Shown: positions 9,778-53,267, counted from the first letter of the stretch. The stretch is 64,000 nucleotides of DNA from an uncultured Alphaproteobacteria bacterium (GCA_944391685.1 CALXUM010000011.1:4919-68918); one strand, 5' to 3'. Notes: generated from the sequence alone by a model not told the origin. Translations and numbers: made by a program.

Positions 9778-11047
9778 AGATAGCCCCCTCATAATGCCAA
9801 ATATTATCTTTTGGAGAATATGTTATAAGTTTAATCTCAAGTCCTGAATATTTTGTTAATATTTCAGTCCATGTTATTGGGTTATAATTAGAATTAATGG
9901 CAAAACGCAACTTTTTATAAATTTTCCCTGTTGATGATGTTACATTATCCATAGATAATGAAATAGGCACACCTATAGACTGAAATTCATCATTAATAGT
10001 GTTTTGAAGATCAATGATATTTTTATTGGGAGGAGATGCTAATTGTTCAATTTTAGGTAAAATTAAAGAAGTAGACATTGTTTTCCCATCAGCAGAAAAG
10101 CCTGTTCCTGAAAGGTTTAAACCCGAATCATCCAAGGCCTGTTTTGCCCAAGATAATCTTCCGACATTTCTTTGCCATGACGTTACAACAGATGTAGGAG
10201 AGCATGTTATGTTTCCAATATCCCATCCCGGAGGCAATATTCTTGCCAAAGATACAATTCCGTCATTACATGCCTTCATCATTGCTTTGGGGTCATAAAC
10301 ATTTTCCCAAGGCTTTATTTCCGGAACAGGTTGTGCCGTTTGAACAATGGCTTTAGGTTTAACAGGGACAATAACGGGTCGAACCGTTGGCGTAAAGAAA
10401 AGCTTATCAACTAAACTAGATAATAACCATAATCCAACAATTGCCGAAATTGCAATCACTAAAAACAACTTCGTGCCACGTAAGGCCTTGATCTTTTGAA
10501 GCTTTGATCTTGCTCCTCTGGATAATACTTCTTCAAGATCCAAATCTTCCGTTTCTTCTATTCCCCATTCTTTGGGAGCAATCTTTTTACCCCAATCTGG
10601 AACAGCTAACATAGACATAAACTGATTTTTAGCTTCTTCTTCGCTTAAGAACAGCATATCTCCGTCAGAAAGAATAATATCATTACGGATACAAGTATAC
10701 CACCATCCTTTATCAGTTTTAAAAACTGCCACATATGATGATATACTAGCCATTGCCGTTGCTAAAGCAACCGCTGCCACTAATTCACCGCTTTTATACC
10801 CTTCATGAGAAACACAAATTCCAAATTGAGGAGCTTTACCTCCTTTAATGCAGAATAAATCTGCCCCTTCCAAAACTCCGGCAGATGCATTTTCAACCTC
10901 CTGAAAAGGATCACTGGCATTTTGTAGCGGTTGCCAAAACAAACTAGTAGCATAATTTACTCCTCCAACCGTAATTGAGGTTCCCCACGAGCGTTTTGAA
11001 CCGCCGCCATCATAGTCTTCTTCTACTAATTTTGCTTCTTCAAGCAC
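9767..11047 (-). CDS. bitopic pilus assembly protein (IncI1 PilO / BfpC / GspL-like by position and topology)
   Basis: A GTG start is preceded by AGGAG. The protein is 426 aa with one central transmembrane (TM) segment (LFLVIAISAIVGLWLLSSLV) between a cytoplasmic and a periplasmic half. The call rests mainly on its position between the secretin and the PilP-like gene. Confidence 0.4.
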   Translation of the reverse strand: MLEEAKLVEEDYDGGGSKRSWGTSITVGGVNYATSLFWQPLQNASDPFQEVENASAGVLEGADLFCIKGGKAPQFGICVSHEGYKSGELVAAVALATAMASISSYVAVFKTDKGWWYTCIRNDIILSDGDMLFLSEEEAKNQFMSMLAVPDWGKKIAPKEWGIEETEDLDLEEVLSRGARSKLQKIKALRGTKLFLVIAISAIVGLWLLSSLVDKLFFTPTVRPVIVPVKPKAIVQTAQPVPEIKPWENVYDPKAMMKACNDGIVSLARILPPGWDIGNITCSPTSVVTSWQRNVGRLSWAKQALDDSGLNLSGTGFSADGKTMSTSLILPKIEQLASPPNKNIIDLQNTINDEFQSIGVPISLSMDNVTSSTGKIYKKLRFAINSNYNPITWTEILTKYSGLEIKLITYSPKDNIWHYEGAIYAL

Positions 11048-11068
11048 CTGATTTCTCCTGAAAATACC

Positions 11069-12679
11069 CTAGTTCATAGACATTCTGGATTCCGGAACTA
11101 GAGGAGATTCTAAAATTATTGGAGTTAGAATTATTACCAATATACTGCGTTCTTTTGTAGCATTAGCAAAACCTCCCAGCAAAGAATTATCAGCAGAACC
11201 GGTTCCTTCTTTTTCTGTAGAATTGCTGACTTTTTCATATCCTGTCAGAACCAAAGATTCTCCAGATGTCATAGCTACTTCTTGCGTAAATGCTCTGGAT
11301 TCTATCTTCGGGTTTTGGATATATTGATTCTCATCTGCTTCACCAAATGAAACTTTTTCCAAATCAGTTAAGTCAGATAATGTCATGTTAAACATTAACA
11401 ACATTCTTCCATGTTCTAATATCCTGGGCAAAACATCAAGAGTAAAACCTGTTTCAACTTCTTCTGTCGTAACCGATATATCATAGTTTGTTCCGTCTGT
11501 ACCACTATTTGTTTTCGTCATTTCTGCAATATAATTCTGTTTTTGGGTAACTTGAATTGGAGCAGGTTTGTTATTTAAAGTTGTAACGGTTCCACTTGTA
11601 ACCAGACTGGTGTTATTCCTTTGCGATAAGGCTTTTACAGCCGCATCAGCTGTCCAATTTTTGTTAAGTAAACCCCATGAAAAACCATTAGTTAAGCCAT
11701 TTTCTGAAGTCAAAACACTTGTTGATCCGGTGGCTCCAAAAGAAGTAACTCCGTCATCAAAAGTAGCCTTCAAATCTAATCCGTAATTATCCGTATCGTT
11801 TATATTAACCTGCAAAACTTTCACGCTAATAGCTACTTGTCTTGATAAACGAGTGTTTTGTTCGTTAATATATTTTGCAACTTTTTTTATGTCATTTGGT
11901 GTGGCGGTTAAAGTTATTGTGCCATCAGAAGGAGACATTGTGAGCTTAGCTCCGTCACTTATCATCGAAGTTATACTTTTTTCAAAATTGCCCCAAAGCT
12001 CAATTTCTGCAGCACTTGACAATGATACTGACGAGCTTCCTCCTCTGTTTGACTGGCTTCCGCCTACATTAACCGACAAATTAGGCTTTGTTGGTAAACT
12101 GTAAACTACAAAAGTCCTAGTTATGAATTTGTAAAAATGAATCTCTTTGTTTTCATATTTCCACCAAATTCCAAAACGAGAAGAAATTTCATCTAAAAGT
12201 CCGCTTAAAGGCCCCTGATAAGACACCAACATTTTATCCGGCTCGGCCCAATCAGCATTAATTCCTGTGGCCGAAGGTTTGTTTGCGGCTCCTTTGGCTT
12301 TTACATCTGCTTCCAATTGTGGTGCATAACGAACTCCTAAAGATGTGGTTTTGTTAATCATATCTCCAATCTCAAAAAGAGTAATCGGACGATTACTGAC
12401 TAAAGTAATTCCGTCTTTTCCTTCCAAATAAGAAGGTAAGGGCTCTCCATCATATTCAATTTCACTTGTGTCTCCAAGCCAAATTTCATCCTTAACCTTG
12501 ATCAAGTCCTCGTTCGCAACTTTTGCAGGAACTTTTGCTGTTTCCTTTAATTTGGTCGCGGCTTCGACTTCTCGGTCTATAGTTGCATCCATGCTTGTTG
12601 AAATAGAACATGAAACGGCAAAGCCTAATATAAAAATTCCTAAACCTATTTTTTTCAAATTAGTCATATGCATTTTCAT
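11069..12679 (-). CDS. pilN: lipoprotein secretin of the type IVb pilus (PilN/BfpB/TcpC class)
   Basis: The lipobox is GFAVSC after MKMHMTNLKKIGLGIFIL. Secretin-type motifs are present (ISVKVLQVNINDTDNYGLDL, NNKPAPIQVTQ, C-terminal ERSILVIILTPIIL). The start is ambiguous among Met codons at 12667-12697. Confidence 0.75.
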   Translation of the reverse strand: MKMHMTNLKKIGLGIFILGFAVSCSISTSMDATIDREVEAATKLKETAKVPAKVANEDLIKVKDEIWLGDTSEIEYDGEPLPSYLEGKDGITLVSNRPITLFEIGDMINKTTSLGVRYAPQLEADVKAKGAANKPSATGINADWAEPDKMLVSYQGPLSGLLDEISSRFGIWWKYENKEIHFYKFITRTFVVYSLPTKPNLSVNVGGSQSNRGGSSSVSLSSAAEIELWGNFEKSITSMISDGAKLTMSPSDGTITLTATPNDIKKVAKYINEQNTRLSRQVAISVKVLQVNINDTDNYGLDLKATFDDGVTSFGATGSTSVLTSENGLTNGFSWGLLNKNWTADAAVKALSQRNNTSLVTSGTVTTLNNKPAPIQVTQKQNYIAEMTKTNSGTDGTNYDISVTTEEVETGFTLDVLPRILEHGRMLLMFNMTLSDLTDLEKVSFGEADENQYIQNPKIESRAFTQEVAMTSGESLVLTGYEKVSNSTEKEGTGSADNSLLGGFANATKERSILVIILTPIILESPLVPESRMSMN

Positions 12680-13370
12680 CCTCCATGGTCTCAACAACTA
12701 AGACTCTGTTTCCTTTATAAAATGTTGCAATCGGAGCAGGTCTGGCTCTGGCAAATGTCCTGATAAGAGCCGAGCTTACATCTGCAAAACGTCCTCTAAA
12801 CATGGCTCCGGCAGCTAATGTATAATTACGATTTGTATTCCAAATCAACCTCCACCCCGAACGCTCGCTCCACTCCGTTAACAAACCTTTAAGAGTTGCT
12901 CCTTCTTCAGCTAACCAATCCTCAACCGGATCTTCTCCCGCCAATTGATTGTCAGAAACATCATCGTCAGAATTTGTTGCTGCGTTTATCTCTTCTTCAT
13001 AATCAATAACCTCTTCCTCTATTGTCGGAGGAATTGCGGCAGACATATTGCTTCCTGCTCCGGCAGTAACAATATTTTGATCGCGGGGAGTTCTTTCTCC
13101 AAATTCACGATAATTAGCACTTGTTTCACGATAATTTACAAAATCCTCTTCCAAAGTTTCTGCTGGAGGAACAATAACAGGTGTTACCGGTGCAGATTCG
13201 ACACAAGGCATGGCATCCGTTTGCACAACAACGGTTTCTTCCTCATATGCAGTATCAGAACTCCAAAAATCCAAACAAGAACATCCTGCTGTCAAAAATA
13301 ATGATAACAGTGATGCTCGACACAACGCTCTTAAGTCCATTTTTGCAATCCTTTGGTTAGATTTTGTCAT
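12660..13370 (-). CDS. pilL: PilL-like lipoprotein with a C-terminal TcpQ domain
   Basis: The lipobox is LFLTAGC. The C-terminus (ATLKGLLTEWSERSGWRLIWNTNRNYTLAAGAMFRGRFADVSSALIRTFARARPAPIATFYKGNRVLVV) matches the TcpQ/PilL pattern as I recall it. The start was chosen at an internal Met (13370). Confidence 0.6.
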   Translation of the reverse strand: MTKSNQRIAKMDLRALCRASLLSLFLTAGCSCLDFWSSDTAYEEETVVVQTDAMPCVESAPVTPVIVPPAETLEEDFVNYRETSANYREFGERTPRDQNIVTAGAGSNMSAAIPPTIEEEVIDYEEEINAATNSDDDVSDNQLAGEDPVEDWLAEEGATLKGLLTEWSERSGWRLIWNTNRNYTLAAGAMFRGRFADVSSALIRTFARARPAPIATFYKGNRVLVVETMEDENAYD

Positions 13371-13426
13371 ATTTTTTCCTATCATACATACTGAAAAATA
13401 AATAATCAAGCGTGACGGTTCACTTA

Positions 13427-14980
13427 TTACCATTGCAAGTAATAACTTTGGTTAAGGTTATTCGTTTTTACAGTATTTCCTTGGTTAAAACTACTTAAAG
13501 TTATTGTTCTAATAATAAACGAGTTTGGTTCTCTGTTTGTAAATACAGTATTGATTTTGCTGTATTCTACACCTTTATTTGTTAAAATATTATGTAACAA
13601 ATTTAATCTTTTTTGCTGTAACTTCATAGAACTTGTTCCGTCAATTCTTATTTCAATGGCTGTATTTTGATCATTTGCAGCCTTGGTGGCAAAAGCTTGA
13701 ATCCAGCGAAGAGTTTGTCCTGATATTTCTGCCCGATTAGGCTGAAAAGACAATCTCATCTCAGTAGGCATGATCTTTCCAATCCTTTTGTTTAAATTTT
13801 TTTTCGGTTGCTTGTCGGAAATTTCTTTAGTTTTTTTTGTTTGCCGCTCGGTTTGAGGCAGCTTTGTCGAAAATATATTATTTAAGGAGGATAAAATATT
13901 GTTTTTATCTTTGCTTTCTTCTTTAACGCTTGCTTGTACAGAAGAGATATCTTTTTTGGTCTCTTCTTTAGGAGAATAGCTTAATTGAGGAGTTAGGTCA
14001 TCTTCGTTTAATATTTCTTCAGGAATTGGAATTAAAAGATTCTTAACTGTCCCTGCCGCAAATTTAACCTCTCCATTCCTTTTTTTTTCGGGGTTTAGAG
14101 CTTTGTTTATTTCTTGCTCTTCTTTTTTATAATATTCTTGCATCATAACCATTTCATTTTTGGGCTTTGCAGCTCCTTTTGCTACAACCCATGGATTTTC
14201 AGCGTCAGGTTGTTTATCTTTCATGTTTTCCCAAGATGTTTTAGAATTTTTATTGTCGTTTATTCTTGTTTTTGAAAAGGGTTGTTCCATACTTATAATC
14301 GGTATGTTCTTATCAGCTAAAGCTACCTTATTTGAATCTTTTGATGTCTCTGTGCGAATTTCATTCTTTTTGTTAAAAGAAACATCTCCTTTTTCAAGAG
14401 GAAAAAGATGTTGAGGTTCATGTTTGGCTGTTTTTAATGTCTTAGTAATTTCTTCTGAAACGTTTGCACTGCCTTTTTCAATTGGAATGGCAGCAAGCCT
14501 AATGCCTTGCGACTTCGGATTGTCTTCAGATTGTTCGCTTTTGTTTTTCAAATGCTCAAAATCTAAAACTTCTTTTAGCAGCTCTGTTTTGCCGGTCTCA
14601 GTTAAATCAATTTTAGCAGGAAATTTTTCATCTGCGTTCTCTGCGCGATTGTCGAGATCAAATTCAAAAACAAAATTGTCGTTAGTATCTGTATTATCGG
14701 CCAAAATAATCTCTTCTTTAGGCTCATAAACAACCTTTTGAACGACATCTTCTTTTTTAATTTCAGGCAAAAGATTCAAGGTAATCTTTTTCACCGGAGC
14801 AGAACTTTTTGAGGGGTTAAATTTTTCTCCGCGAAGGAAAAGAGTAATGTTTTTTGATGGTATTTTAAGGGGTTCTTTGTTTGAAGAGTAAACATGCCAA
14901 TAAGCTCTGTTTGCCGTAAAAATAACAAGCAGAGATATGCAAAAACTATAAACAAAAGTTCTAAAGCCTGTTGTTTGCAT
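13427..14980 (-). CDS. membrane-anchored protein with a degenerate OmpA/MotB-like C-terminal domain
   Basis: ORF 13427..15049 begins with TTG. ATG 14980 (MQTTGFRTFVYSFCISLLVIF) gives an N-terminal TM segment. A long Lys/Glu-rich linker follows. The C-terminus (LSFQPNRAEISGQTLRWIQAFATKAANDQNTAIEIRIDGTSS..QQKRLNLLHNILTNKGVEYSKI) follows the OmpA_C layout. Confidence 0.35.
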   Translation of the reverse strand: MQTTGFRTFVYSFCISLLVIFTANRAYWHVYSSNKEPLKIPSKNITLFLRGEKFNPSKSSAPVKKITLNLLPEIKKEDVVQKVVYEPKEEIILADNTDTNDNFVFEFDLDNRAENADEKFPAKIDLTETGKTELLKEVLDFEHLKNKSEQSEDNPKSQGIRLAAIPIEKGSANVSEEITKTLKTAKHEPQHLFPLEKGDVSFNKKNEIRTETSKDSNKVALADKNIPIISMEQPFSKTRINDNKNSKTSWENMKDKQPDAENPWVVAKGAAKPKNEMVMMQEYYKKEEQEINKALNPEKKRNGEVKFAAGTVKNLLIPIPEEILNEDDLTPQLSYSPKEETKKDISSVQASVKEESKDKNNILSSLNNIFSTKLPQTERQTKKTKEISDKQPKKNLNKRIGKIMPTEMRLSFQPNRAEISGQTLRWIQAFATKAANDQNTAIEIRIDGTSSMKLQQKRLNLLHNILTNKGVEYSKINTVFTNREPNSFIIRTITLSSFNQGNTVKTNNLNQSYYLQW

Positions 14981-15049
14981 AATAAACCCCTCTAAACCTT
15001 GATAAATCAAAATGCGACTCTTGGCAAGAGTCCATAAAAATATACACAA

Positions 15050-15318: not shown

Positions 15319-15669
15319 ATGCGATTTATTAAAAACAATATTTGGACGTTTTGCTTGGTAGCTGTTTTTACCTTGCTCAGCTTTAGCGGCGATGCTTTGG
15401 CACAAAGCAGCGTTATGAGCTTAGCTCAAACCAAAGCTAAAAATGTTTTTAGCTCAGTAAAAACAATTATCTTTATTGTTGGCGGTTTTGGTTTGGTAGG
15501 TATTGCTTTTGCAGCCATCTTTGGTAAAATTAACTGGAAATGGTTTGCTTCTTTAGCCGTCGGTTTGGCAATTGTAGCTGCTGCGGCTTCCATAATTAAT
15601 TATGCAACAGGTGATGATAGTGGTCTAAGCATGAGTGAAGATACCTTTAGCTCTTCCGCAGTAAATTAA
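15319..15669 (+). CDS. virB2: VirB2/TrbC-family T4SS pilin
   Basis: The protein is 116 aa with a long signal peptide ending ALAQ. Two hydrophobic helices are joined by a short basic loop (GGFGLVGIAFAAIFGKINWKWFASLAVGLAIVAAAASIINY). It is the first gene of the T4SS cluster and is followed by a terminator. Confidence 0.7.
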   Translation: MRFIKNNIWTFCLVAVFTLLSFSGDALAQSSVMSLAQTKAKNVFSSVKTIIFIVGGFGLVGIAFAAIFGKINWKWFASLAVGLAIVAAAASIINYATGDDSGLSMSEDTFSSSAVN

Positions 15670-15762
15670 AATTGCCGGTAAGCTGCTTTAATTTAAATAT
15701 CCTTGCCTAATCAAGTTTCTTAATCAATAAAGAAAAAATTTATCAAGGATTATGATAACATG

Positions 15763-15797
15763 AGAGGGCCACGATAAAAATACCGCGGCCCTCTTTT
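15763..15797 (+). terminator. rho-independent terminator or attenuator after virB2
   Basis: The stem pairs agagggcc (15763-15770) with ggccctct (15787-15794) and is followed by a T run. Confidence 0.55.
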
Positions 15798-15880
15798 ACC
15801 AAAATAAGTTTTGATATTTGAGTAAAGTTAGATCGTATATCAATATAAATCAAAGAAAATGTGCATATATGGAGGATGCA

Positions 15881-16480
15881 ATGATTATAATCAAAAAAAT
15901 ATGCCAATTAATAATGATTGCAGTCTTTATGTATCTCTTTAATATCCATTTTTCTTTAGCGGCATCAACAAACGATACCGAGCAAAAAAATTTCCAAATT
16001 AATGTAACGGAAATTAATACACAGCAAACATCTGTAACCTATGATTCCTCAAATTGTGATAATAAATGTTCTGAAGGATATTATTGTGCCGTCGTGTTTG
16101 GTTCTTTGGGAAAATATACCTGTATCAAAAAACCGGAAACAAATGCTACCGAAGCGGCAAGCGAAGTTACCGCTGGGACCAGTACCGCTCCTTCAGATGC
16201 TGCAATTACCGGTTGTTCCAGCAATTATGGGCTTTTTTCAGGATTGATTGCTACGGGAAGTAAGATTTTTAATGGTCTGAGAGATTTGATATACGTAGTT
16301 GCCGGTTTTGGTATAATAGGTGTTGCAGTTGGAGGCTTCTTTGGTAATTTGAATTGGAAATGGCTTGGGGCTATTATAATTTCATTGGTGGTTATAGCCA
16401 CTACTGGCGAAATCATAAATTTAATTACTGGTTGTGAGGATTTTAGTAATGCCATCATTACTGACACACTAACAAAATAA
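15881..16480 (+). CDS. VirB2-module protein with a Cys-rich N-terminal extension
   Basis: ORF 15818..16480 begins with TTG. ATG 15881 is preceded by GGAGGA. It has a signal peptide and a Cys-rich segment (CDNKCSEGYYCAVVFGSLGKYTC). The VirB2-like hairpin is VAGFGIIGVAVGGFFGNLNWKWLGAIIISLVVIATTGEIINLI. Confidence 0.55.
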   Translation: MIIIKKICQLIMIAVFMYLFNIHFSLAASTNDTEQKNFQINVTEINTQQTSVTYDSSNCDNKCSEGYYCAVVFGSLGKYTCIKKPETNATEAASEVTAGTSTAPSDAAITGCSSNYGLFSGLIATGSKIFNGLRDLIYVVAGFGIIGVAVGGFFGNLNWKWLGAIIISLVVIATTGEIINLITGCEDFSNAIITDTLTK

Positions 16481-16514
16481 TAACTACAAACGAAGAACTG
16501 TCAAGGAGGGAGTT

Positions 16515-19500
16515 ATGATAAAGCTAAAGAAAATAATAAAGATTGTTATTATAACAACAATCTTTGCTTTTATTTCCCTCAGCAATAAAGTTTATGCCGC
16601 AGATGAAAGTTTTTCAATTGATTTGAAAAAACAGAGTACTCAGGAAGCAGCGGCAGCAATTTCAGAACAAAAAAATATATGGAGCGAAAAGCAAGCTGAA
16701 CTTAATTCTTTGCTCAATGATAATTCAGAGCTTGGCGAGTTAAATCGTAAAATGCAGGCGGCATCAAGTTCTGGTGATACAGAAGCTTATAATCAATATA
16801 GAATAAAATATGAACAAGCTCAAAAGGATAGAAACGAAAAAATCTCGCAGCTCAAAAAAGAAACAGAGCAATTACAAAAAGAAATAACTAAAGCTGATAA
16901 TACGCTAGATAAACAATTATCAAAAGAACAAAAATCTGCAGAAAAAGAGGTAAAATCAGCTCAAAATGATATAGATAAATATTGCGGCACAGGCAAAAAT
17001 GCAGATGCATCAAAATGTAGTGAAGCACAAAAATCATTAAGTACTGCTCAGAAAAATCTTAATTCCATAGAAACCGTAAGAACGTCAAGCCAACAACAAC
17101 TTATTTCTGTACAACCAAGTGCAGAAGAAGGAGTGCAGGTTAATGGTGAAACATATTCGGCAACAAAAGAAGATGCTGAAGCGGCAAAAAAAGCTTACAA
17201 TGAAGCCAAGAATGCATACATGCAAGCACAAATAGACTTTAATGTGGCAAAAGAAACATGTCCTGGTCCGGATTGTTCTATAGATAATTGTAAAGAAAAG
17301 AATGATAAATGTTCGGAAGAAATTTCCAAATTAGAAAAAGCGGTTGAAGAAGCAAAAACTAAAACGGATGAGGCATATAAAGATTATTATAATAAAAATA
17401 AGAACGCAGCCCCAAGCGAAAAAGAACAGGCCAAAACAAATTTAGATGAAGCAGAACAAGCAGTAAATGATGCTCAAAATAATGTTTACAACCTTAAAGC
17501 ACAGCTTGATCAAGCTACCCAAGCTTGTGAATATTCAAGTACATTAACATCTAAAGCAGGTCAGGCAGACGCTCAAAAATATTGTTCTCAAGCCAATGCT
17601 TTGGAAGAAGCGTACACAGAAGCTAAAGAAGAATTGATAACTGCAGAAGACAAACTTGAAGAAGCAAGAGGAAAATATAATTCGATACAAGGTTCTGTTG
17701 AAGATCACAAAGGGCAAGTATTTCAAGCTATATCTGGAACAATAAATGAGGATTTATATAAAAATACCGGAGATATTCTTCAAACCATTACAAGACGAGC
17801 AGCATGGGTAATTGTCTCTATTAAGCCGATAGTTTACATTTTTGCCGGTTTTGGTTTAATAGGTTTTGCCTTTGCGGCAATTTTTAACAAAATAAGTTGG
17901 AAATGGTTTGCTAATATTGCAATAGGCTTATTTTTGGTAGCAAATATGGGACGTTTTATTGAGTATTTTGTTTATCCTACTCCGAATGAAAATTATGAAA
18001 ACGCCGTTAAAACCCCTGCATTTGGAGATTATTTACAAAAAGCTCTGGTCGATTCTAGATATGTTTGGATTGACGAAATAAGTCCGTATATAGAACCTTC
18101 CGAGGCAGAGTTAATATCTGGACTTCCGGAAGGAGCCTTATTGCCTGAATATGAATCGGCAACAAGAGGTTTTTGCGGACGAACCATAGGAGCCACTGGG
18201 TGGGGTAATTTTACTAACTGTATTAAAGATATTATCACTACAGGAAAGAAAGCTGTTGATGCCGCTCAAACAGCTCAAAGGACCATAGATAATGTTGAAA
18301 ATACGGTTGAATATATTAAAAATGCCGCAGACAATATAGGAGGAGCTGTTAAAAATATAGATAGTATTGAGGACTCTATTAAAGCTATAGGAAGCGTAAG
18401 TGCAAATGTTAACGGCATAATAACGGGTAGCGGCAATATGGTCAATGGAGTTTTGTATAGTACCTCCAGCATATCAAACGATGTTCAAGACATAGGAAAA
18501 AGTACAGATCAAATTGCCGAGCTTGAAGAAAAAAGAAATAAAGGAGAAGGAACCAATGCTGTTGATCGTTTTCTTAAAGGTCAAACTCTTGGTGCTGATG
18601 GAGAAGTTGAACGATTATACGCAGGTTTTGACAAAACACAGTCCGTTGGCTCTGTAAACTCAAAAGGCCAAGTTATTGATAGTGATGGTAAAATTATAGG
18701 TACAATGGATAAAGATGGAAATATTATTGGCCCAGACGGAAAACCAATAGAAGGGTTGTCTTTGGGAGCCAATAATGATGGTAAATTTAATAATAAAGTT
18801 TATATGTCGGGTTCTGACAATATATTATTAGGAGATATTGCAACCAGCAACAATGCTGTTACTCAACTTCAAGCAAACAGTAAGGAATTAGTTAAAAAAT
18901 CTAATGAACTCAATAATGACATTCAAACAGGAACCAATACGGCTGAAATCGGATTAAATACAATAAATAACTTCTCTGTTTTCGGTAGCAAATCCATAAA
19001 TGAACGTCGCCAAGAAAAACAACAAGAAGAGCAGCAAAAGCAGCAGCAAAAACAGCAAGAAGAACTTAAAAAACAGCAAGAAGAACTTAAAAAACAGCAA
19101 GAAGAGCAGCAAAAACAGCAAGAAGAACAAAACTTGATGAGCAAATATGAAAATGTTGTTAATGAAACAATAAAAGAAAATAATAAAAATGCAACTGAGG
19201 AAGCTCAAGACGCAAGCAAAGAGTATAATAATTTACTTAAAACATCAAATATATTGCAAAGTGATGCAGATAGGTTGCAAAAAAATGCAGATAATTTATC
19301 TAATACGGCATCATATTTACAAGAGAATGCAGATAAATTGACCGAAGATGCTAAAAAAGCGGCTGACAAGGCGGCACAAACCGGTAATGAAGAAGATCAG
19401 CGTATAGCAGATCAATTGCAAGCCAGAGCTGATATAGCTCAAAAAGAGGCTGATATAGCTAAAACGAATTCCGAAAAAGCCATAACTGCAGCAACAGAAG

Positions 19501-20687
19501 CTCAGCAAAAAGCTGAAGCAGCCAAAGCCCCGTTACAAGAGGCATATGAAGATCTTTTGAATAAAAATATTAATTCTGCAGAGTATGAAAAACAAAAAGC
19601 TGAACAGGACCTTGTCGATTCTCAAAAGGATCTTGAAGCAGCTAACAATGAACTTGTTGTAATTCAAGAAAAATATAATAATGCAGAAGATGGTTATAAG
19701 CAGGCAAAGGATGAAGCTGCTAAAGCCAAGGAAGCATTTGATAAAGCTCAGGAGGATGGAAAAGATTTAGAGAAGGCAAAAGAAAATTATATATCATCAT
19801 TAGAAAAACTTGAAACTAAAGAAAAAGAATATAAAGAAGCATCTAATGATTTAAAAGATGTTAACAATAAAATTGATCAACAGACAAAAAAATATAAAGA
19901 TGCAGAAAAAGCTATTGCAGATAATGATATTAAATATCAAAAACTAATAGCGGAAAGAGATATAGGGTTAAAAGAAGAAGATATCAAAGAAATAGATAAA
20001 AATAATGCTGAAGTAGATCAGGTTATAGAGCAATATCAACAATCCCAAAATCCTGTTAATGAAGCTCTTTCTGCAGAAAAGAAATTAAGAGATGCAACAT
20101 CAGAATATAATGCAGCAAATTCAAATGCAAAAACAAAACAAGCAGATGCAGAAAGAACTAAAAAACTAGCGGAAGATGCTAGAAAAAAAGCCAATGAGAG
20201 CGGATCAGAAGTTGATCAAAGAGCAGCGGATCAGGCCGAAAAGATGGCAGATTTGGCCGCGGCCGCGGCAGCAGATGCTCAGCAAAAAGCTGAAGCAGCC
20301 AAAGCTCCTTTAGAGCAATTGGAAAAAAATGCTAATAAGGCATATCTAAATGAAGCTAAATATAATCAAGAAAAGAATCAAGAACAAATGACCAAACTTG
20401 ATACGGAAATAAACAATATAAAAGAACAAATTAATAGTATCTCAAAAGAAATTGAAAATGCCAAACAAGAAGCTACCCAGAAGCAAGAAGCGGCAGCCAC
20501 ATATAAAGATACAGCTTCAATTAACGCAGCAATAGAAGCTCAAAACAGAGTCAATGAACTTGAGAAAAACCTAAAGCAACAACAAAGTGATATGGAAAAG
20601 ACCATGGTTTCACGTAATAAAGCTGAAGAAAATTATTATTCTGCACGTACCAGAGAAGCTGAATTAATGGAGATTCTTAAGCAATAA
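16515..20687 (+). CDS. giant (1390 aa) secreted coiled-coil protein with an embedded VirB2-like two-helix module
   Basis: An SD (AAGGAGGGAG) precedes the ATG. The signal peptide ends VYA|AD. About 420 aa of coiled coil come first. The VirB2-like hairpin follows (IFAGFGLIGFAFAAIFNKISWKWFANIAIGLFLVANMGRFIEYF, about nt 17841-17960). About 900 more aa follow, including two DG-x-IIG repeats and Ala/Glu/Lys/Gln coiled coil. Confidence 0.6.
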   Translation: MIKLKKIIKIVIITTIFAFISLSNKVYAADESFSIDLKKQSTQEAAAAISEQKNIWSEKQAELNSLLNDNSELGELNRKMQAASSSGDTEAYNQYRIKYEQAQKDRNEKISQLKKETEQLQKEITKADNTLDKQLSKEQKSAEKEVKSAQNDIDKYCGTGKNADASKCSEAQKSLSTAQKNLNSIETVRTSSQQQLISVQPSAEEGVQVNGETYSATKEDAEAAKKAYNEAKNAYMQAQIDFNVAKETCPGPDCSIDNCKEKNDKCSEEISKLEKAVEEAKTKTDEAYKDYYNKNKNAAPSEKEQAKTNLDEAEQAVNDAQNNVYNLKAQLDQATQACEYSSTLTSKAGQADAQKYCSQANALEEAYTEAKEELITAEDKLEEARGKYNSIQGSVEDHKGQVFQAISGTINEDLYKNTGDILQTITRRAAWVIVSIKPIVYIFAGFGLIGFAFAAIFNKISWKWFANIAIGLFLVANMGRFIEYFVYPTPNENYENAVKTPAFGDYLQKALVDSRYVWIDEISPYIEPSEAELISGLPEGALLPEYESATRGFCGRTIGATGWGNFTNCIKDIITTGKKAVDAAQTAQRTIDNVENTVEYIKNAADNIGGAVKNIDSIEDSIKAIGSVSANVNGIITGSGNMVNGVLYSTSSISNDVQDIGKSTDQIAELEEKRNKGEGTNAVDRFLKGQTLGADGEVERLYAGFDKTQSVGSVNSKGQVIDSDGKIIGTMDKDGNIIGPDGKPIEGLSLGANNDGKFNNKVYMSGSDNILLGDIATSNNAVTQLQANSKELVKKSNELNNDIQTGTNTAEIGLNTINNFSVFGSKSINERRQEKQQEEQQKQQQKQQEELKKQQEELKKQQEEQQKQQEEQNLMSKYENVVNETIKENNKNATEEAQDASKEYNNLLKTSNILQSDADRLQKNADNLSNTASYLQENADKLTEDAKKAADKAAQTGNEEDQRIADQLQARADIAQKEADIAKTNSEKAITAATEAQQKAEAAKAPLQEAYEDLLNKNINSAEYEKQKAEQDLVDSQKDLEAANNELVVIQEKYNNAEDGYKQAKDEAAKAKEAFDKAQEDGKDLEKAKENYISSLEKLETKEKEYKEASNDLKDVNNKIDQQTKKYKDAEKAIADNDIKYQKLIAERDIGLKEEDIKEIDKNNAEVDQVIEQYQQSQNPVNEALSAEKKLRDATSEYNAANSNAKTKQADAERTKKLAEDARKKANESGSEVDQRAADQAEKMADLAAAAAADAQQKAEAAKAPLEQLEKNANKAYLNEAKYNQEKNQEQMTKLDTEINNIKEQINSISKEIENAKQEATQKQEAAATYKDTASINAAIEAQNRVNELEKNLKQQQSDMEKTMVSRNKAEENYYSARTREAELMEILKQ
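19048..19131 (+). repeat. four tandem 21-bp units inside the giant gene
   Basis: The unit aaaaacagcaagaagaactta appears twice exactly (19048-19068 and 19069-19089). Two more units vary at the 3' end. Together they encode (K)QQEELKK heptads. Confidence 0.8.
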
Positions 20688-20705
20688 AATTAACGCATTA
20701 TTCAT

Positions 20706-20750
20706 AAAAAAGAGCTATCATTATAATTAATGAAAGCTCTTTTTTATTTT
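20706..20750 (+). terminator. possible terminator after the giant gene
   Basis: The arm aaaaaagagct (20706-20716) pairs with agctctttttt (20735-20745) around an 18-nt loop and is followed by a T-rich run. The stem is weak and A/U-rich. Confidence 0.35.
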
Positions 20751-20779
20751 AAAAACAAGGGATAAAATAAGTATGTTCC

Positions 20780-20834: not shown

Positions 20835-21125
20835 ATGCGTGAAATTATATTAAAAGCAGTGGCAAACCCGCCCAAAATCCTTTGGGGTCCCTTTTTGCCT
20901 ACAATGCTCAATATGGGTATCCAATTCCCAATAATGTTTATGTCTTTGGGAACGTTTGATGTAAATCCGTTGTTTTTTATGATGACAGTTGTCTTGGGCC
21001 ACTTGTTTTGTATAGTTTTAGGGATAAAAGAACCTCACATATCTGCAATGATCCAAGCATATGGTCAATCAGCCAAAACATCGCATAATCTTTATAAAGT
21101 AAAGGGGAATAAATTTGCACCTTGA
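20835..21125 (+). CDS. virB3: VirB3-family T4SS inner-membrane protein
   Basis: The protein is 96 aa. The pattern LKAVANPPKILWGPFLPTMLNMG with two hydrophobic segments is typical of VirB3. It lies immediately upstream of virB4 and overlaps it. Confidence 0.75.
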   Translation: MREIILKAVANPPKILWGPFLPTMLNMGIQFPIMFMSLGTFDVNPLFFMMTVVLGHLFCIVLGIKEPHISAMIQAYGQSAKTSHNLYKVKGNKFAP

Positions 21126-23547
21126 TTTTGATTTTTTCAGCATTTTTGTAGAGGGACTTTCTAATATGGAGGTCTTGGTCGCTGCTATAGGCTTCATATC
21201 GGCAGCGGCTTTTGCTGGTTTATGGGCTACAAAGTTTGGTTATTTTGTTCTCCCTCAGCCTAGGGAATCTCGCGTTTCTGATTTTTTACCGTTTAACAAA
21301 CTCCTTTCTGATGGGATGACAATTCGTTGTTACAATGGATCTTTGGCCAGAGTTTTTAAGGTTACGGGAATTGATTTGGCCTTTGTTACTGAAGAAAAGG
21401 TTATGTCTATGCTAGAGGCAAGAAAGTCTTGGATTGATGGAATGTCAGATCTTCAGGTAACTTGTCGTGTTATAACCTTGCGAGAAAGGATTCCCTTGGA
21501 AGAAGATAAAGGTGATTTTGATAATCCTTTGTTAGAAGAAATTTCTCATGTTTGGAGTTCAAATCTCAATCGTGTTTATAGTAATAGTCACTATATAGTA
21601 CTCTCGGTGTCGGATAGAGATGACAATCTTAAGGATCTTAATTATGCGTCACAGGCTCTTATAGCAACATTAAATGAATATGGAATAACCGCTCTTTATG
21701 AAAGTGAGGGTAGTCCGGCAGAAGACAGCCCATTGTCTGTTTATGCCAAAATATGTAGCCCTATTTCTAAACCCATGCCAAAAATAAATGGTGCAGAAGG
21801 TCCGCATATGAATGAGCTTTTGACGGCAGATCATATTCATTTTACGGGAGAAGATGGAATAATTCGTTTTTTTTCAGGAGAAAAAGAGCTTTTTGAAATT
21901 GTTATGGGAATTCGCTCCTCTGGAGATTATATGGATGAAGGTATGATAGCTAGCTTGTTGTCAATAGATTGTGAACTAACGCTTTTGCATAATATCAGAC
22001 CGATTCTAAATCCTCATGCAAGAGCATTGTTAATGCAGCAACAACGAATGGCAACCATGACAAGTTTCTCCAGCGATGTAATTAATCAATATGGCGAGGT
22101 TTTGGCAGCTATTGAGGATAGCGATACCAATCACCAATCTTTAACAGAATATGCCATGGCAATAATTTTGCGTGGAGAAACGAAAGATGAAATAGATTTT
22201 GGCGAAAGTGAGGTCCAAAGAATTTGTCGATTGTATGGAGTAACCCCTGTACGAGAAGGTTGGATAAGTCAGGCTACATTTTTTAATCAGTTTCCTACTT
22301 ATGAAACTCTGCCAAGGACCTATAGATATCTTTCAAGAGTTGTTGCTACGGCTATTTCTTTTGATAAGCCATCAGAAGGTTTTTCAAAGAGTGATTGGGG
22401 GCCTGGTGCAATTACCGTTTTTCGAACCACATCAGGTTCAGCATATCGTTTCCAGTTTCATGTTTCAAGTGATGATTCTGCAGTTGCACACTGTTGTATT
22501 ATCGGGCCGACTGGTCAAGGAAAAACAACATTACTTACTTTTTTAGCCGGCCAAGCGATGAGGCACCATGATTTAAGGGTGTTTTTCTTTGATCGTCATC
22601 GTGGAGCAGAAATCTTTACCAGAGCTATAGGTGGAGCGTATGTTGGTTTTGAAGGAGATGAAAAAAACGTATCCTTAAATCCGTTTGACTGTGCTAACAC
22701 TCCAAACAATAGAGCTTTTTTACGCCGATGGATGAGAGCCATTACGTTGGTAGATGATGCTGTTTCTGAAAAAGAAATTGCTCGTGCGGTAACTACAGCT
22801 TTTGACTATTTACGCCCAGAAGAACGTATTATGACCAATCTTTATAAAAGTTGTTTTTCTCCTACCGGGAATATGCGTCGAGAGCTATACAAATGGATTA
22901 ATCCGGATCAATATGGGAATATATTTAACGCAACCAATGATAATTTAGATTTAAAATCAAAACGATTTATGGCATTTGATTTTACCCATATTTTTGAAGA
23001 TGAAACCCTAGCTCCGGCAGTTATCAGCTATATTATGCATCGTATCCAGTCGGAGACAGGAGAGACTGGAGTTCCTTCACTTATTATGATAGATGAAACG
23101 GCTCCCATGCTCAAACATCCTATGTTTAGAGATTATTTTGCTATAGGTTTGCAAGAAGGACGTAAAAAAAGACAGGCTTATTTATGTGCTTTCCAACAGC
23201 CTAATATTATTGATAAGCTCGGTGTCGGAGAGGTAATACGAGGGCAATGTCAAACGGTTATTTTCTTCCGAAATCCGCAAGCTATGCCGGAAGATTATGT
23301 TAATTGGAATTTAACCACGGCTGAAACAGATTTTATTTTTGGTAAAAGTTATAGAGATTTTCCTTATGCTATTTTACTTTCTCGACCGGCAACAGGAGAA
23401 TCTGTTATTTTAGATGTTGATTTAAGCGGTTTAGGACCATATTTGCGTTTATACAATTCTGGACGTAAAAATGTTTTATTGGTTGAAGAGTTAATAAAAG
23501 AATATGGTGAAGAAAACTTTGTTACAAAATATTTAAATCTTGAGTAA
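21115..23547 (+). CDS. virB4: VirB4 T4SS ATPase
   Basis: Motifs seen: Walker A IIGPTGQGKTTLL, Walker B SLIMIDETAPML and the N-terminal VirB4 pattern SDFLPFNKLLSDGMTIRCYNGSLARVFKVTGID. The ORF begins at TTG 21115. An alternative ATG is at 21166. Confidence 0.9.
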   Translation: MHLDFDFFSIFVEGLSNMEVLVAAIGFISAAAFAGLWATKFGYFVLPQPRESRVSDFLPFNKLLSDGMTIRCYNGSLARVFKVTGIDLAFVTEEKVMSMLEARKSWIDGMSDLQVTCRVITLRERIPLEEDKGDFDNPLLEEISHVWSSNLNRVYSNSHYIVLSVSDRDDNLKDLNYASQALIATLNEYGITALYESEGSPAEDSPLSVYAKICSPISKPMPKINGAEGPHMNELLTADHIHFTGEDGIIRFFSGEKELFEIVMGIRSSGDYMDEGMIASLLSIDCELTLLHNIRPILNPHARALLMQQQRMATMTSFSSDVINQYGEVLAAIEDSDTNHQSLTEYAMAIILRGETKDEIDFGESEVQRICRLYGVTPVREGWISQATFFNQFPTYETLPRTYRYLSRVVATAISFDKPSEGFSKSDWGPGAITVFRTTSGSAYRFQFHVSSDDSAVAHCCIIGPTGQGKTTLLTFLAGQAMRHHDLRVFFFDRHRGAEIFTRAIGGAYVGFEGDEKNVSLNPFDCANTPNNRAFLRRWMRAITLVDDAVSEKEIARAVTTAFDYLRPEERIMTNLYKSCFSPTGNMRRELYKWINPDQYGNIFNATNDNLDLKSKRFMAFDFTHIFEDETLAPAVISYIMHRIQSETGETGVPSLIMIDETAPMLKHPMFRDYFAIGLQEGRKKRQAYLCAFQQPNIIDKLGVGEVIRGQCQTVIFFRNPQAMPEDYVNWNLTTAETDFIFGKSYRDFPYAILLSRPATGESVILDVDLSGLGPYLRLYNSGRKNVLLVEELIKEYGEENFVTKYLNLE

Positions 23548-23622: not shown

Positions 23623-24528
23623 ATGAAAAAGCATAATTTCATAAAGCAAGCGGCATATTGCCTCATATCATTTATTGTCTTAACATTCTCAGCCAAAGCA
23701 CAAATACCGGTTATTGATGTTTCCAGCGTTAAGAATAGTATAACGAGCTGGTTTGAAATATCTAAAGGTAATAAATATATCGCTAGCACAAATAATATAA
23801 TATCAAAAACAAATTCTGCAATAGGAGAAGGGAAATCAACGATTTCTGAATATGTTGTTGAAAATAAAAGGCGAATTGAAGAAAAAAAAGAAAAAGTAGA
23901 ACAGTATAAAAAAGAGACAGAAGAATATAAAAAAGAATATCAAGAATATCAAAAACAATATGAAGAAACAAAAGAACAAGTCGAATATTTGTCAGAAAAT
24001 CAAAATGATGGTTTAATAATAAAAGGTCAAGGGAATTATTTCCATCAAGAAAAGGTAGCCTATGCATTTGCACTTAAACTAGAAGATAATGGTACAGATG
24101 TTAATGGAAACTTTATTATTCCTCAAAGTATTGCTATGTATTGTAATCTTAATTCGCAAACGGCACAGGAAGAAGGAAAAGTGGATTTATGTTTGCGGAA
24201 TTTAAATCAAAACTCTCAAAAATCCAGAACGGAAGATCATACTGATGCTCCAGAATTTATGAAAATGGCAAAAGCAGAATATGCAGCCTCTGTCATTGCT
24301 GAAGCTTATAAGGCTAAAAATGATGCAGAATCTTTTGAGGAAAAAATTCTTGATCCCATAGAAGATGCTCCCGCACCTCAAGTTTTAGATATTTATTCTA
24401 ATGTGATTGAGGTAAATAAAGCAGTAGTAAATACTTTAAACAGTATTTTAAGAATTCAAAGTGCAAGGTTAGCTCTAAAATCATTTGATAATTATGGCAA
24501 ATATAATTTCCTGCCAGAAGAAGGTTAG
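23623..24528 (+). CDS. secreted coiled-coil protein, VirB5/TrbJ-like candidate
   Basis: An SD (AAGGGAGG) precedes the ATG and a signal peptide is present. The mature N-terminus QIPVIDVSSVKNSITSWFE resembles the IPV(I/F/T)D start I recall for VirB5/TrbJ minor pilins. It sits right after virB4. Confidence 0.45.
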   Translation: MKKHNFIKQAAYCLISFIVLTFSAKAQIPVIDVSSVKNSITSWFEISKGNKYIASTNNIISKTNSAIGEGKSTISEYVVENKRRIEEKKEKVEQYKKETEEYKKEYQEYQKQYEETKEQVEYLSENQNDGLIIKGQGNYFHQEKVAYAFALKLEDNGTDVNGNFIIPQSIAMYCNLNSQTAQEEGKVDLCLRNLNQNSQKSRTEDHTDAPEFMKMAKAEYAASVIAEAYKAKNDAESFEEKILDPIEDAPAPQVLDIYSNVIEVNKAVVNTLNSILRIQSARLALKSFDNYGKYNFLPEEG

Positions 24529-24535
24529 GTGCTAA

Positions 24536-25078
24536 ATGATAAAAAAAATTTTTTTAATAACTATGTTTCTACAGTCTTTTGTAAGTTATTCATTAAGTCA
24601 GGAATTAGAAATTTCTCAAGTGCAAGATAATGGAACAGGTCCAGATGGCGTAATGATATTTCCTAAAGGAATGGCCATACGTTGTGGAATAACTTCTCAT
24701 GATGGTAAAAATTCAGAAAAGATAAAGGAATGCCTAGATCGTCTTGTCTATTTAACTCAAGATGGAGTCACGGGAAAAGAAAGTTCCTTTGAAATAATGA
24801 GCGAGATTTTGGGACAAATGAATAAAGAATATATTAAAACAGCCTTACAAAATAAATCAGAGGCAGGAGATTATGAAGATAAAATAGAAGAGGAGATTAA
24901 AAATTCTCAGGCATCTACAATCAGAGACAAGCAAGAACAAATGGTAAATTTATCAGCAATGGGAGGTAGAAATATAATAAATTTAAACCAAGTATATGCC
25001 TCATTATTATTTCTTCAGGCTATGAATAGTTTCTATGAATATGATTTTTCAAATAGAGAAATAAATATTCAGGAGTAA
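24536..25078 (+). CDS. secreted protein of unknown function (T4SS cluster)
   Basis: It has a signal peptide (MIKKIFLITMFLQSFVSYSLS) and is tightly spaced in the operon, with 7-nt gaps. Confidence 0.5.
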   Translation: MIKKIFLITMFLQSFVSYSLSQELEISQVQDNGTGPDGVMIFPKGMAIRCGITSHDGKNSEKIKECLDRLVYLTQDGVTGKESSFEIMSEILGQMNKEYIKTALQNKSEAGDYEDKIEEEIKNSQASTIRDKQEQMVNLSAMGGRNIINLNQVYASLLFLQAMNSFYEYDFSNREINIQE

Positions 25079-25084
25079 ATCAAT

Positions 25085-25822
25085 ATGCAAAATAACTTTT
25101 TGATATATTTATTTTTATTAATAAATTTTACGAGAGCAGCATATGCAGGAGCTACTGATCCTATAGTTAATGCTATGGATATGGCCAAGCAAAATATAGA
25201 AAAAGTTGGAACAACACAAGAAAATCTTAGCTCGCAATATCAAAAATATATGAATGAGAAAATAGGTGATTTTGGAGATTTGAATTCAGACGCAAAAAAA
25301 ATGCGTAAATTGGAAAAAAACAAGCAACGCTTAGAAAGAATAAAGGAACAAACTACAGCGACCAAAGAAGAGTTAGAAAGGCTTCAAGAAAGAGCTGAAA
25401 AAACACAACAACATATTTCTGAAGTAAAAGCATCGGCTAATCAAATCATATCAGAAGCAGAGGCAGCAGAAAAAGAAATAAAATCAACAAAAGAAGATAT
25501 AAAACAAATTAAAAATCAAGGAAAGGATATAAATACAACAATAGATGTACAAAAAGAAGCCATATTACCTAGCTCTCAAACAGCTACAGTAATTAATCAA
25601 ACGGCAACCAATAGTTCCGATAACTTGACAACAGATGTTAATAAAATCCCGTCAACGTCTGAATTGAATACAGATATATCTGCATCAGAAGTATGGCAAA
25701 ACAGTAAAACAAGCAATATTTCATCCGAAACTCCAACATTAAGCACTAACTTGTCTATAGAGGAGCAAATAGTTGGAACAAACCCAAATGTAAATAATAA
25801 TTGGGGAGGACAAAATGAATAA
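25085..25822 (+). CDS. secreted coiled-coil protein of unknown function (T4SS cluster)
   Basis: It has a signal peptide (LINFTRAAYAGA), a Lys/Glu-rich coiled coil and a Ser/Thr/Asn-rich tail. It overlaps the next gene by 8 nt. Confidence 0.5.
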   Translation: MQNNFLIYLFLLINFTRAAYAGATDPIVNAMDMAKQNIEKVGTTQENLSSQYQKYMNEKIGDFGDLNSDAKKMRKLEKNKQRLERIKEQTTATKEELERLQERAEKTQQHISEVKASANQIISEAEAAEKEIKSTKEDIKQIKNQGKDINTTIDVQKEAILPSSQTATVINQTATNSSDNLTTDVNKIPSTSELNTDISASEVWQNSKTSNISSETPTLSTNLSIEEQIVGTNPNVNNNWGGQNE

Positions 25823-53219: not shown

Positions 53220-53267
53220 AACTTTTATCCTTACAAATCAATGCTTTTTATTATTCCTGCTTTCCTC

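Follow-up and report, generated by a model that had tools for sequence, protein, structure and literature searches.

Pilins of the TrbC/VirB2 family from type IV secretion systems (T4SS), such as VirB2 of Agrobacterium tumefaciens and TrbC of RP4, are known as precursors of about 100-120 amino acids (aa) with a signal peptide and two helices joined by a short basic loop, and they are encoded ahead of virB3-virB4. Several systems carry a number of tandem virB2 genes per T4SS, among them Bartonella Trw (TrwL), the Anaplasmataceae and other Rickettsiales, and Patescibacteria. In the passages retrieved from the literature such arrays are usually explained by surface variation (PMC12857230; PMC7789307; PMC12102498). 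Ehrlichia VirB2 is given there as about 120 aa and the Rickettsiales paralogues as being of 'similar sizes and domain architecture' (PMC7789307). Here we describe three tandem genes in a stretch of 64,000 nucleotides (the window) from an uncultured Alphaproteobacteria bacterium (GCA_944391685.1, CALXUM010000011.1:4919-68918). Positions 15319-20687 hold three adjacent open reading frames (ORFs) on the plus strand, each containing one VirB2/TrbC two-helix core, with virB3-virB4 directly downstream. The initial annotation of this DNA had named Bartonella Trw and the Anaplasmataceae as precedents for multiple VirB2 copies, in agreement with the reports cited above. The copies in the Trw and Rickettsiales arrays, however, are similar in size and variable in sequence, whereas the three genes described here have three different architectures, each of which is a conserved orthologous class over dozens of species. 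In the third of them a complete core is embedded in a protein of 1390 aa.

Gene 1 (15319-15669) encodes an ordinary VirB2/TrbC pilin of 116 aa, presumed to be the major pilin. Its signal peptide ends in ALA, directly before QSS, and its two-helix core contains the loop FGKINWKWF. Gene 2 (15881-16480) encodes a paralogue of 199 aa, which consists of a signal peptide, a cysteine-rich N-terminal module and a VirB2 core. The mechanically called ORF of gene 2 has 220 aa and starts from a TTG codon at 15818; the ATG at 15881 is preceded by a GGAGG Shine-Dalgarno sequence and yields 199 aa, as does the public gene call for the contig, so that the length of 200 aa proposed at first was essentially right. 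Gene 3 (16515-20687) encodes the giant, with its core placed between two long arms. For genes 1 and 3 the first-reported sizes and coordinates were recovered unchanged. A signal-peptide-like N-terminal segment was seen in all three proteins by hydropathy, and the exact 1390-aa giant with the same neighbours was found on a public metagenome contig. Compared with the known precursors, the core of the giant is preceded by about 390 extra aa and followed by about 900, and that of gene 2 is preceded by about 100 extra aa.

In a protein alignment of the three cores the residues G-F-G, a G, an A, an F and W-K-W are invariant, and the loop (G/N)(K/N).(N/S)WKW is common to all three paralogues. The similarity is also visible in the DNA, as had been claimed: the segments 15481-15605, 16301-16420 and 17841-17960 show 62-66% ungapped identity compared with 28-29% (standard deviation 4%) for shuffled sequences. 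Against the Pfam TrbC/VirB2 profile (PF04956, curated cut-off 27.9 bits) gene 1 scored well above the cut-off (E 2.3e-11, 44.2 bits, profile positions 6-97 of 98), as expected for the normal VirB2 that it had been taken for. Genes 2 (E 5e-4, 20.6-20.9 bits; E 4e-4 over residues 127-182) and 3 (E 1.4e-3, 19.2 bits, residues 432-476) stayed below it, and the excised core of gene 3 reached 26.0 bits, still below. A search with this profile had been suggested at the outset; it identified gene 1 outright and left genes 2 and 3 sub-threshold as single sequences, and the cores were matched by profile-profile comparison. For this we used profiles from related genomes, one of 39 giant-type cores (A4) and one of 44 gene 1 orthologues (A5), which hhalign aligned to each other with 99.2% probability (E 3.5e-19). 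When excised, 37 of the 39 giant-family cores match Pfam TrbC alone at E <= 0.01, and only one of the matching cores matches any other Pfam family, marginally. The hairpins thus did not fail the VirB2/TrbC profiles, the outcome that was named beforehand as fatal to the assignment.

The nearest VirB4 in a cultured organism (39% identity) is encoded on the Microvirga plasmid pMVF16-3, whose conjugative-type T4SS has one annotated 'TrbC/VirB2 family protein' of 117 aa, a relaxase and VirD4. Gene 1 is 35% identical to this pilin (E 1e-19), and the giant-core profile aligns with its residues 25-99 (97.4% probability, E 1.2e-11). Because the giant-core profile matches both the gene 1 family and this stretch of the Microvirga pilin, residues ~415-490 of gene 3 are, judged from the profiles, the equivalent of a whole mature pilin and not a stray hydrophobic hairpin. 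Across species the giant core is also conserved to about the same degree as the major pilin, with a mean column identity of 68% (39 sequences) compared with 73%. Searches of the PDB with the giant-core, gene 1 and core-plus-domain profiles returned no VirB2, TraA or TrbC structure and gave weak generic helical or chance matches; we do not hold this against homology, because short hydrophobic profiles may lack power in a sequence search. A tblastn search of plasmid records with gene 1 gave no match.

All three proteins have the signal peptide, the two hydrophobic helices and the short basic loop of the family, and all three lie in the T4SS operon position beside virB3/virB4, an arrangement that is conserved in related loci. 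The mature size of the family (~70-90 aa) is kept by gene 1 and exceeded by genes 2 (199 aa) and 3 (1390 aa). Since the latter two are homologous to VirB2 and yet lie outside its size range and under the curated Pfam score, we file them, on these comparisons, as a new architectural variant of the family rather than as standard members. No natural VirB2 core inside a large protein is described in the literature searched, nor is such a giant pilin mentioned in the passages retrieved from a December 2025 review of T4SS diversity; within that literature the supposition that a VirB2 core in a fibrous protein of more than 1000 aa had not been described holds.

The equivalence of the embedded core with a mature pilin would also be expected if gene 3 encoded a precursor, from which the arms were cut off as pro-regions to release a VirB2-sized pilin variant, by analogy with the processing of TrbC. 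TrbC indeed undergoes C-terminal trimming. VirB2, according to the passages retrieved, loses a long signal peptide and is cyclised (PMC7789307). In the giant, however, the residues ahead of the internal core show neither a signal-peptide-like hydrophobic segment nor an Ala-x-Ala context. The scanned ORFs of the window include no S26-type or TraF-like peptidase, and, in contrast to the cyclic TrbC/VirB2 systems, no cyclase or peptidase gene was seen there. Moreover, the core is followed by about 200 conserved residues with motifs and a cysteine pair, unlike a discarded pro-peptide, and some 1,300 disposable residues for each 75-residue product would be wasteful. We consider processing of this kind improbable.

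The giant begins with a signal peptide (residues 1-28, 16515-16598) ending in VYA, ahead of AD, as judged by hydropathy; its homologues share the N-terminus M.NLKKIS followed by a hydrophobic run. The N arm (residues 29-414, 16599-17756) is a heptad-rich coiled coil with several breaks, at which cysteines occur (C157/168, C249-266 and C338/357). The core (residues ~415-490, 17757-17984) comprises a first transmembrane helix (TM1, 429-458), the loop NKISWKW and a second helix (TM2, ~463-485). This hairpin provides the only hydrophobic segments beyond the signal peptide. TM2 is the weaker of the two, with a mean hydropathy of ~1.3 (calculated by hand), and contains the polar motif NMGR.IEY, a conserved feature of the giant family that the major pilin does not share.

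Beside the core lies a conserved domain (residues 491-700, 17985-18614) that appears mostly helical from homologue alignments and a low-confidence structure model. It carries the motifs GDYL, D(T/S).Y.W, RGFC...F.(S/N)C.KD, AGKKAVD, NIG and QD..KS.D..EL as well as the conserved pair Cys554 and Cys569. An AlphaFold2 model of core and domain from 13 sequences had a mean confidence score (predicted local distance difference test, pLDDT) of 44. A PDB profile search with the domain gave weak matches to helical proteins of a generic kind, headed by a methyl-accepting chemotaxis protein (E 1.6e-3), and no Pfam match to a VirB5/TrbJ-type tip fold was found at E <= 1. Two or three repeats of the beta-flower/DUF3659 type (G.V.DSDGKIIG..DKDGNIIG) follow at 18600-18752; they match the repeats of a 1146-aa ORF further downstream (BLASTP, E 2e-8) and, weakly, Pfam DUF3659. 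An imperfect DNA tandem repeat (19011-19129) encodes a Q/E/K-rich stretch, and the distal C arm (residues ~875-1380, 19137-20654) is again a heptad-rich coiled coil. We scored coiled coils with a crude in-house heptad scan, in which 85% of residues 29-420 and 92% of residues 861-1390 fell into heptad-like windows compared with 29% and 38% in shuffled sequences. Further family matches of gene 3 were limited to sub-threshold hits of the SMC/Rad50 coiled-coil arm type (NCBIfam). Hydropathy and heptad scan together reproduce the proposed layout of signal peptide, coiled coil, hairpin and long C-terminal part.

To follow the three genes in related bacteria we scanned one genome per species and obtained 56 loci from 55 genomes, all of them uncultured gut Alphaproteobacteria. 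Samples from humans, roe deer, water deer and rabbits are among the sources, as is 'Proteobacteria bacterium CAG:495'; we take RF32 to be the order-level name for genomes of the 'CAG:495' type. The giant type occurs in 41 further loci (L002-L042) from about 40 distinct species genomes, referred to as clade 1. The order of a small, a medium and a giant ORF with one core each is kept throughout these loci except in L037, which meets a contig end, and in L038, where the gene 2 orthologue has two cores. Complete giants of this clade, including the copy in the window (n = 35), range from 771 to 2058 aa. In a sister clade of 15 loci (L043-L057) the same machine is present with a short third paralogue of 166-252 aa. 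Behind its signal peptide this paralogue has no N arm but directly a core bearing the giant-type signature, and then a tail of 62-149 aa that contains cysteines.

Homologues of the giant form more than 360 protein clusters of 858-2138 aa, in which the core lies at positions 241-879 and is almost invariant (GFGLI.FA.MAIFNKISWKW). A profile search of 1.84 billion cluster representatives returned 547 clusters at E <= 1e-3; among the best 150 of these, 146 have the core, 98 are at least 500 aa long and 35 at least 1000 aa. A distant giant of 909 aa lies on the 1.89-Mb contig GCA_047014165.1, in the order type IVb pilus genes, TrbC (112 aa), TrbC (145 aa), giant, a minus-strand ORF, VirB3 and VirB4. 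Pfam matched only TrbC (24) and the Tcp10_C repeat (2) in 69 distant extended family members, with no known adhesin domain. An assembly artefact, or an ORF frameshifted in other isolates, had been considered beforehand; with intact orthologues in the 41 further loci and the protein clusters at hand, the giant is neither.

Conservation differs sharply along the giant. Across the 41 clade-1 loci, identity to the proteins of the window is 86-95% for VirB4, 75-89% for VirB3 and 63-76% for gene 1. The giant core falls into the same region (56-89%) and the domain after it is less conserved (27-69%, and 34-69% in nearly all related genomes), whereas the N arm is only 20-33% identical (64% in the closest genome) and the distal C arm 21-35%. 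The arms also vary in length, the N arm from 219 to 808 aa and the C arm from 222 to 1355 aa in the 35 complete clade-1 giants, which is about four- to six-fold. Because the lengths of the two arms are not correlated (rho 0.009, n = 35), pairing of the arms as an SMC-like antiparallel coiled coil was dropped as a general model. Near-identical giants from gut metagenomes (P0025-P0120) differ in length by increments of 16 aa (1100, 1116, up to 1260), because they contain 1-10 copies of the 16-aa C-arm repeat NGGTNQPLTGGDKPT(N/D); a 48-aa insertion or deletion in their N arm is composed of 24-aa repeats.

A gene 2 orthologue is present in every related locus carrying the triplet. The cysteine-rich N-terminal module ascribed to gene 2 indeed contains four cysteines (CDNKC...C...C, 16055-16123), and one further cysteine lies on either side of the VirB2 core (16214-16435). 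The number of cysteines in the module differs among orthologues. The bracketing pair, exactly 73 residues apart, is invariant in 41 giant-bearing loci (L001-L036, L039-L042) and absent from the sister clade. From our reading of the three-protein alignment, its N-side member lies about at the signal-peptidase site of gene 1; the C-side member comes after the conserved T-G that closes helix 2. A disulfide between the two would link both ends of the core outside the cytoplasm. Topologically this would resemble the head-to-tail cyclisation of T- and P-pilins (VirB2), which use a peptide bond. Two tandem VirB2 cores were seen in the 270-aa gene 2 orthologue of L038 (5698-6507) and likewise in the 216-aa cluster representative P0255.

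The cysteine pair also bears on topology, because a disulfide could form only on the non-cytoplasmic side. Together with the signal peptide and the basic WKW loop it supports an arrangement in which both arms of the giant would lie on the same, non-cytoplasmic side of the membrane.

Between genes 1 and 2 a GC-rich, terminator- or attenuator-like stem-loop with a T run is found (15762-15797, plus strand), as the initial annotation had it. The stem-loop itself (15762-15793, GAGAGGGCC...GGCCCTC) is followed by TTTT and has a free energy of about -17 kcal/mol. A consensus terminator scan missed it, its loop probably being above the limit of the scan; with a crude detector, elements of hairpin plus T run were found after gene 1 in about a dozen related loci. 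A second terminator-like hairpin with a U run lies between gene 3 and virB3 (20704-20752, plus strand; -20.6 kcal/mol, z-score -7.7 compared with shuffles). Ribosome-binding sites are good for all three genes, with AAGGAG (strong) for gene 1, GGAGG for gene 2 and AAGGAGG (strong) for gene 3. The three genes may thus form a unit with an internal attenuator, and hairpins in these two places would be expected if one subunit were abundant and two were scarcer.

Based on these observations we propose, with somewhat less than even confidence, that the locus encodes one major and two minor pilins and that the giant is handled by the same machinery as the others, displaying its fibrous arms on the pilus, probably at the tip. 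The three genes would serve as the pilin module in a large, chromosomally encoded VirB-type machine, the hallmark of a lineage of uncultured gut Alphaproteobacteria. Gene 1, of ordinary size and with the attenuator behind it, would be the major pilin. With their complete VirB2 cores genes 2 and 3 would enter the inner membrane by the same route as gene 1, that is with a Sec signal peptide, a two-helix hairpin and the basic loop facing the cytoplasm, and would then be taken up by the same VirB machinery. One machinery for all three is the simplest reading because of the complete core, the family loop, the position in the pilin slot and the conservation at a level like that of the major pilin. 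Gene 2 would contribute a small cysteine-rich knob, with its core closed by the disulfide. In gene 3 the two long coiled-coil arms would leave the core on the same, outward side.

A few copies of gene 3 would be built into the pilus. In the published model of pilus growth, as described in passages of a recent review, growth begins with a tip complex on VirB6, and VirB2 subunits join from the base (PMC12857230). The most plausible place for gene 3 would be the first layer of subunits, later the tip of the pilus, since arms in this position would go through the channel ahead of the rest and would avoid clashes with adjacent subunits. The arms would form a fast-evolving, possibly adhesive fibril for contact with host or other cells. 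Alternatively, gene 3 could sparsely decorate the shaft of the pilus. Display fits better than a spacer of fixed size because arm length varies freely and the sister clade has only a small knob. A comparable logic is known from type IV pili and type II secretion, where bulky minor pilins or pseudopilins (GspK; minor-pilin/PilY1 complexes) prime assembly and cap the tip. GspK-type proteins likewise combine a pilin core with a large additional domain that can be accommodated only at the tip, are encoded beside the major subunit and are presumably produced in lower amounts; they belong to an unrelated family and machine, and the resemblance is an analogy only.

The remainder of the machine is unusual in size as well. 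Behind the three pilin genes the plus strand carries a virB3-like gene (96 aa) and virB4 (810 aa) at 20835-23547, identified by ORF scan and Pfam. Six consecutive plus-strand ORFs (23623-31646; 301, 180, 245, 162, 466 and 1318 aa) with signal-peptide-like starts show no family match beyond coiled-coil noise. The first of them, the 301-aa ORF after virB4, is a possible counterpart of VirB5. Its mature N-terminus, QIPVID, is similar to that of the ORF behind VirB4 in Microvirga; homologues are few, no family was matched, and an AlphaFold2 model from 9 sequences had a mean pLDDT of 46. Still on the plus strand there follow two tandem VirB8 paralogues (31597-32421 and 32713-33456) and a VirB9/CagX homologue of 567 aa (33463-35166), whose C-terminal SPOR domain scores below the Pfam cut-off (E 1.8e-3); SPOR is a peptidoglycan-binding domain. 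The 1146-aa ORF (35142-38582) has one N-terminal TM helix and consists almost entirely of beta-flower/DUF3659 repeats, and the VirB10 homologue of 1521 aa (38584-43149) has many beta-flower repeats ahead of its TrbI domain. No polytopic VirB6 lies inside this main plus-strand operon. Two extended VirB6/TrbL homologues (858 and 750 aa) are located on the minus strand within 50643-59584, about 6 kb past virB11; between them lie the genes of a 918-aa M23 peptidase-domain protein and of a 428-aa protein without family match. Between the virB11 end of the operon and the VirB6 genes, a 322-aa protein with two Cro/C1-type helix-turn-helix domains is encoded on the minus strand (49533-50501) and is a possible local regulator.

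Oversized components are known from other T4SS, for example CagY (VirB10) of Helicobacter pylori with its repeats. In the extended VirB6 proteins of Rickettsiales a conserved T4SS domain is likewise part of a very large protein with repeats or hydrophilic extensions, according to the passages retrieved (PMC12857230; PMC7789307); here the pilin itself is enlarged. With regard to gene content, Trw lacks VirD4 and the Rickettsiales systems lack VirB5 and have duplicated VirB4, VirB6, VirB8 and VirB9, while the window has two VirB8, two VirB6, one VirB4 and one VirB9.

Neither a VirD4 coupling protein nor a relaxase domain was found by Pfam in the 43 ORFs scanned in the 64-kb window, which makes a plain conjugation system unlikely. 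This absence could be taken to indicate that gene 3 is not a part of the machine but its cargo, a hairpin-anchored coiled-coil protein that the T4SS would pull out and insert into the membrane of a target cell like a chlamydial Inc protein or Legionella PieE. According to the part of the report retrieved, PieE indeed has two adjacent TM helices flanked by coiled coils (PMC4145681), an arrangement that leaves both ends on one side of the membrane. Gene 3, however, carries a signal peptide of the Sec type, and its hairpin shows homology to the pilin beyond mere hydrophobicity. It belongs to a set of three fixed paralogue classes that occupies the pilin position in the operon, and no effector-type features were seen, though no search aimed at them was made. 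To our knowledge, effectors of the PieE and Inc type have neither Sec signal peptides nor homology to pilins. A role as cargo is therefore very improbable.

On the other side of the pilin genes, and back to back with them, lies a complete type IVb pilus set on the minus strand (3171-13433) with TcpQ, a secretin, PilO, a T2SSE ATPase, T2SSF, two pilins of the PilS/bundlin type and a second ATPase. The two gene sets also adjoin in many related loci, as they do in the sister clade and in the distant 1.89-Mb genome. A 540-aa ORF without real family match, on the minus strand (13427-15049), separates the TcpQ gene from gene 1; it is 33-57% identical in those related loci that extend over this flank, also in the sister clade. 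The left edge of the window (985-3188) encodes a PP2C phosphatase, a VWA-domain protein and a thioredoxin-like AhpC/TSA protein.

Several of these observations weigh against the display of the giant on a pilus. Its beta-flower repeats are common to the giant VirB10 and the membrane-anchored 1146-aa protein, which hints at a periplasmic setting. The conserved Asn, Arg and Glu in TM2, which the major pilin lacks, may mean that the helix packs differently. If the giant were exported, some 1,300 appended residues would have to pass the outer-membrane channel, and if the 301-aa ORF is indeed a VirB5, as it may be, no substitute at the tip would be needed. The variation in repeat number may be real strain variation or an artefact of short-read assembly. 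Finally, the secreted ORFs after virB4 (301, 180 and 245 aa) evolve as fast as the arms, with 20-48% identity outside the closest genome. Because other secreted ORFs of the locus diverge equally, the divergence of the arms does not single out surface exposure, and its use as a specific sign of such exposure is weakened.

Some of the same evidence would suit a protein that stays in the inner membrane, anchored by the hairpin and possibly docked on VirB6/VirB4, with the arms serving in the periplasm as a scaffold, a gate or a regulator of pilin recruitment. The repeat regions of the 1146-aa ORF and VirB10 are expected to be periplasmic, and the locus is rich in oversized envelope parts (the 1521-aa VirB10, VirB9 with SPOR, the two extended VirB6 and the 1318-aa secreted ORF). 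The polar residues of NMGR.IEY suggest a specific partner for TM2, fast evolution is not confined to the arms, and the arms, whose heptad segments run for only about 50-170 residues between breaks, could fold into bundles that fit the periplasm. A part with critical dimensions should, however, keep its size, whereas the arms of the giant vary between species without co-variation and those of the sister clade are reduced to the C-terminal extension. The full length of a mature pilin and the family loop likewise exceed the needs of a plain anchor. We regard retention in the inner membrane as the main alternative, less probable than display on the pilus but well ahead of the other readings.

Pilus display of the giant also admits a more general formulation, which we put forward as a speculative and rather doubtful one: the VirB2 core may be a portable handle for membrane extraction and polymerisation, by which proteins of 800-2,000 residues are pulled from the inner membrane by the T4SS and mounted on the pilus. 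If so, this would be an undescribed route for the export and display of giant fibrous adhesins in diderm bacteria, and the giant might take over the role at the tip that VirB5 plays elsewhere.

VirB2 pilins have been treated as small, uniform building blocks. A deeply conserved class in which the full core bears more than 1,000 residues of fibrous arms would demonstrate that passengers of great size can be attached to the T4SS pilin fold, and would raise questions about the recruitment of pilins, the priming of the pilus and the width to which the channel opens. The short third paralogue of the sister clade offers a natural contrast for the function of the arms. The components of the machine are at present all annotated as 'hypothetical protein'; our analysis flags the oversized T4SS and the neighbouring type IVb pilus as a signature organelle of gut Alphaproteobacteria from human, deer and rabbit metagenomes. 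Since VirB4 is so strongly conserved across this small-genome lineage of human and animal guts, the lineage may well depend on the machine for contact with its host or with partner cells.

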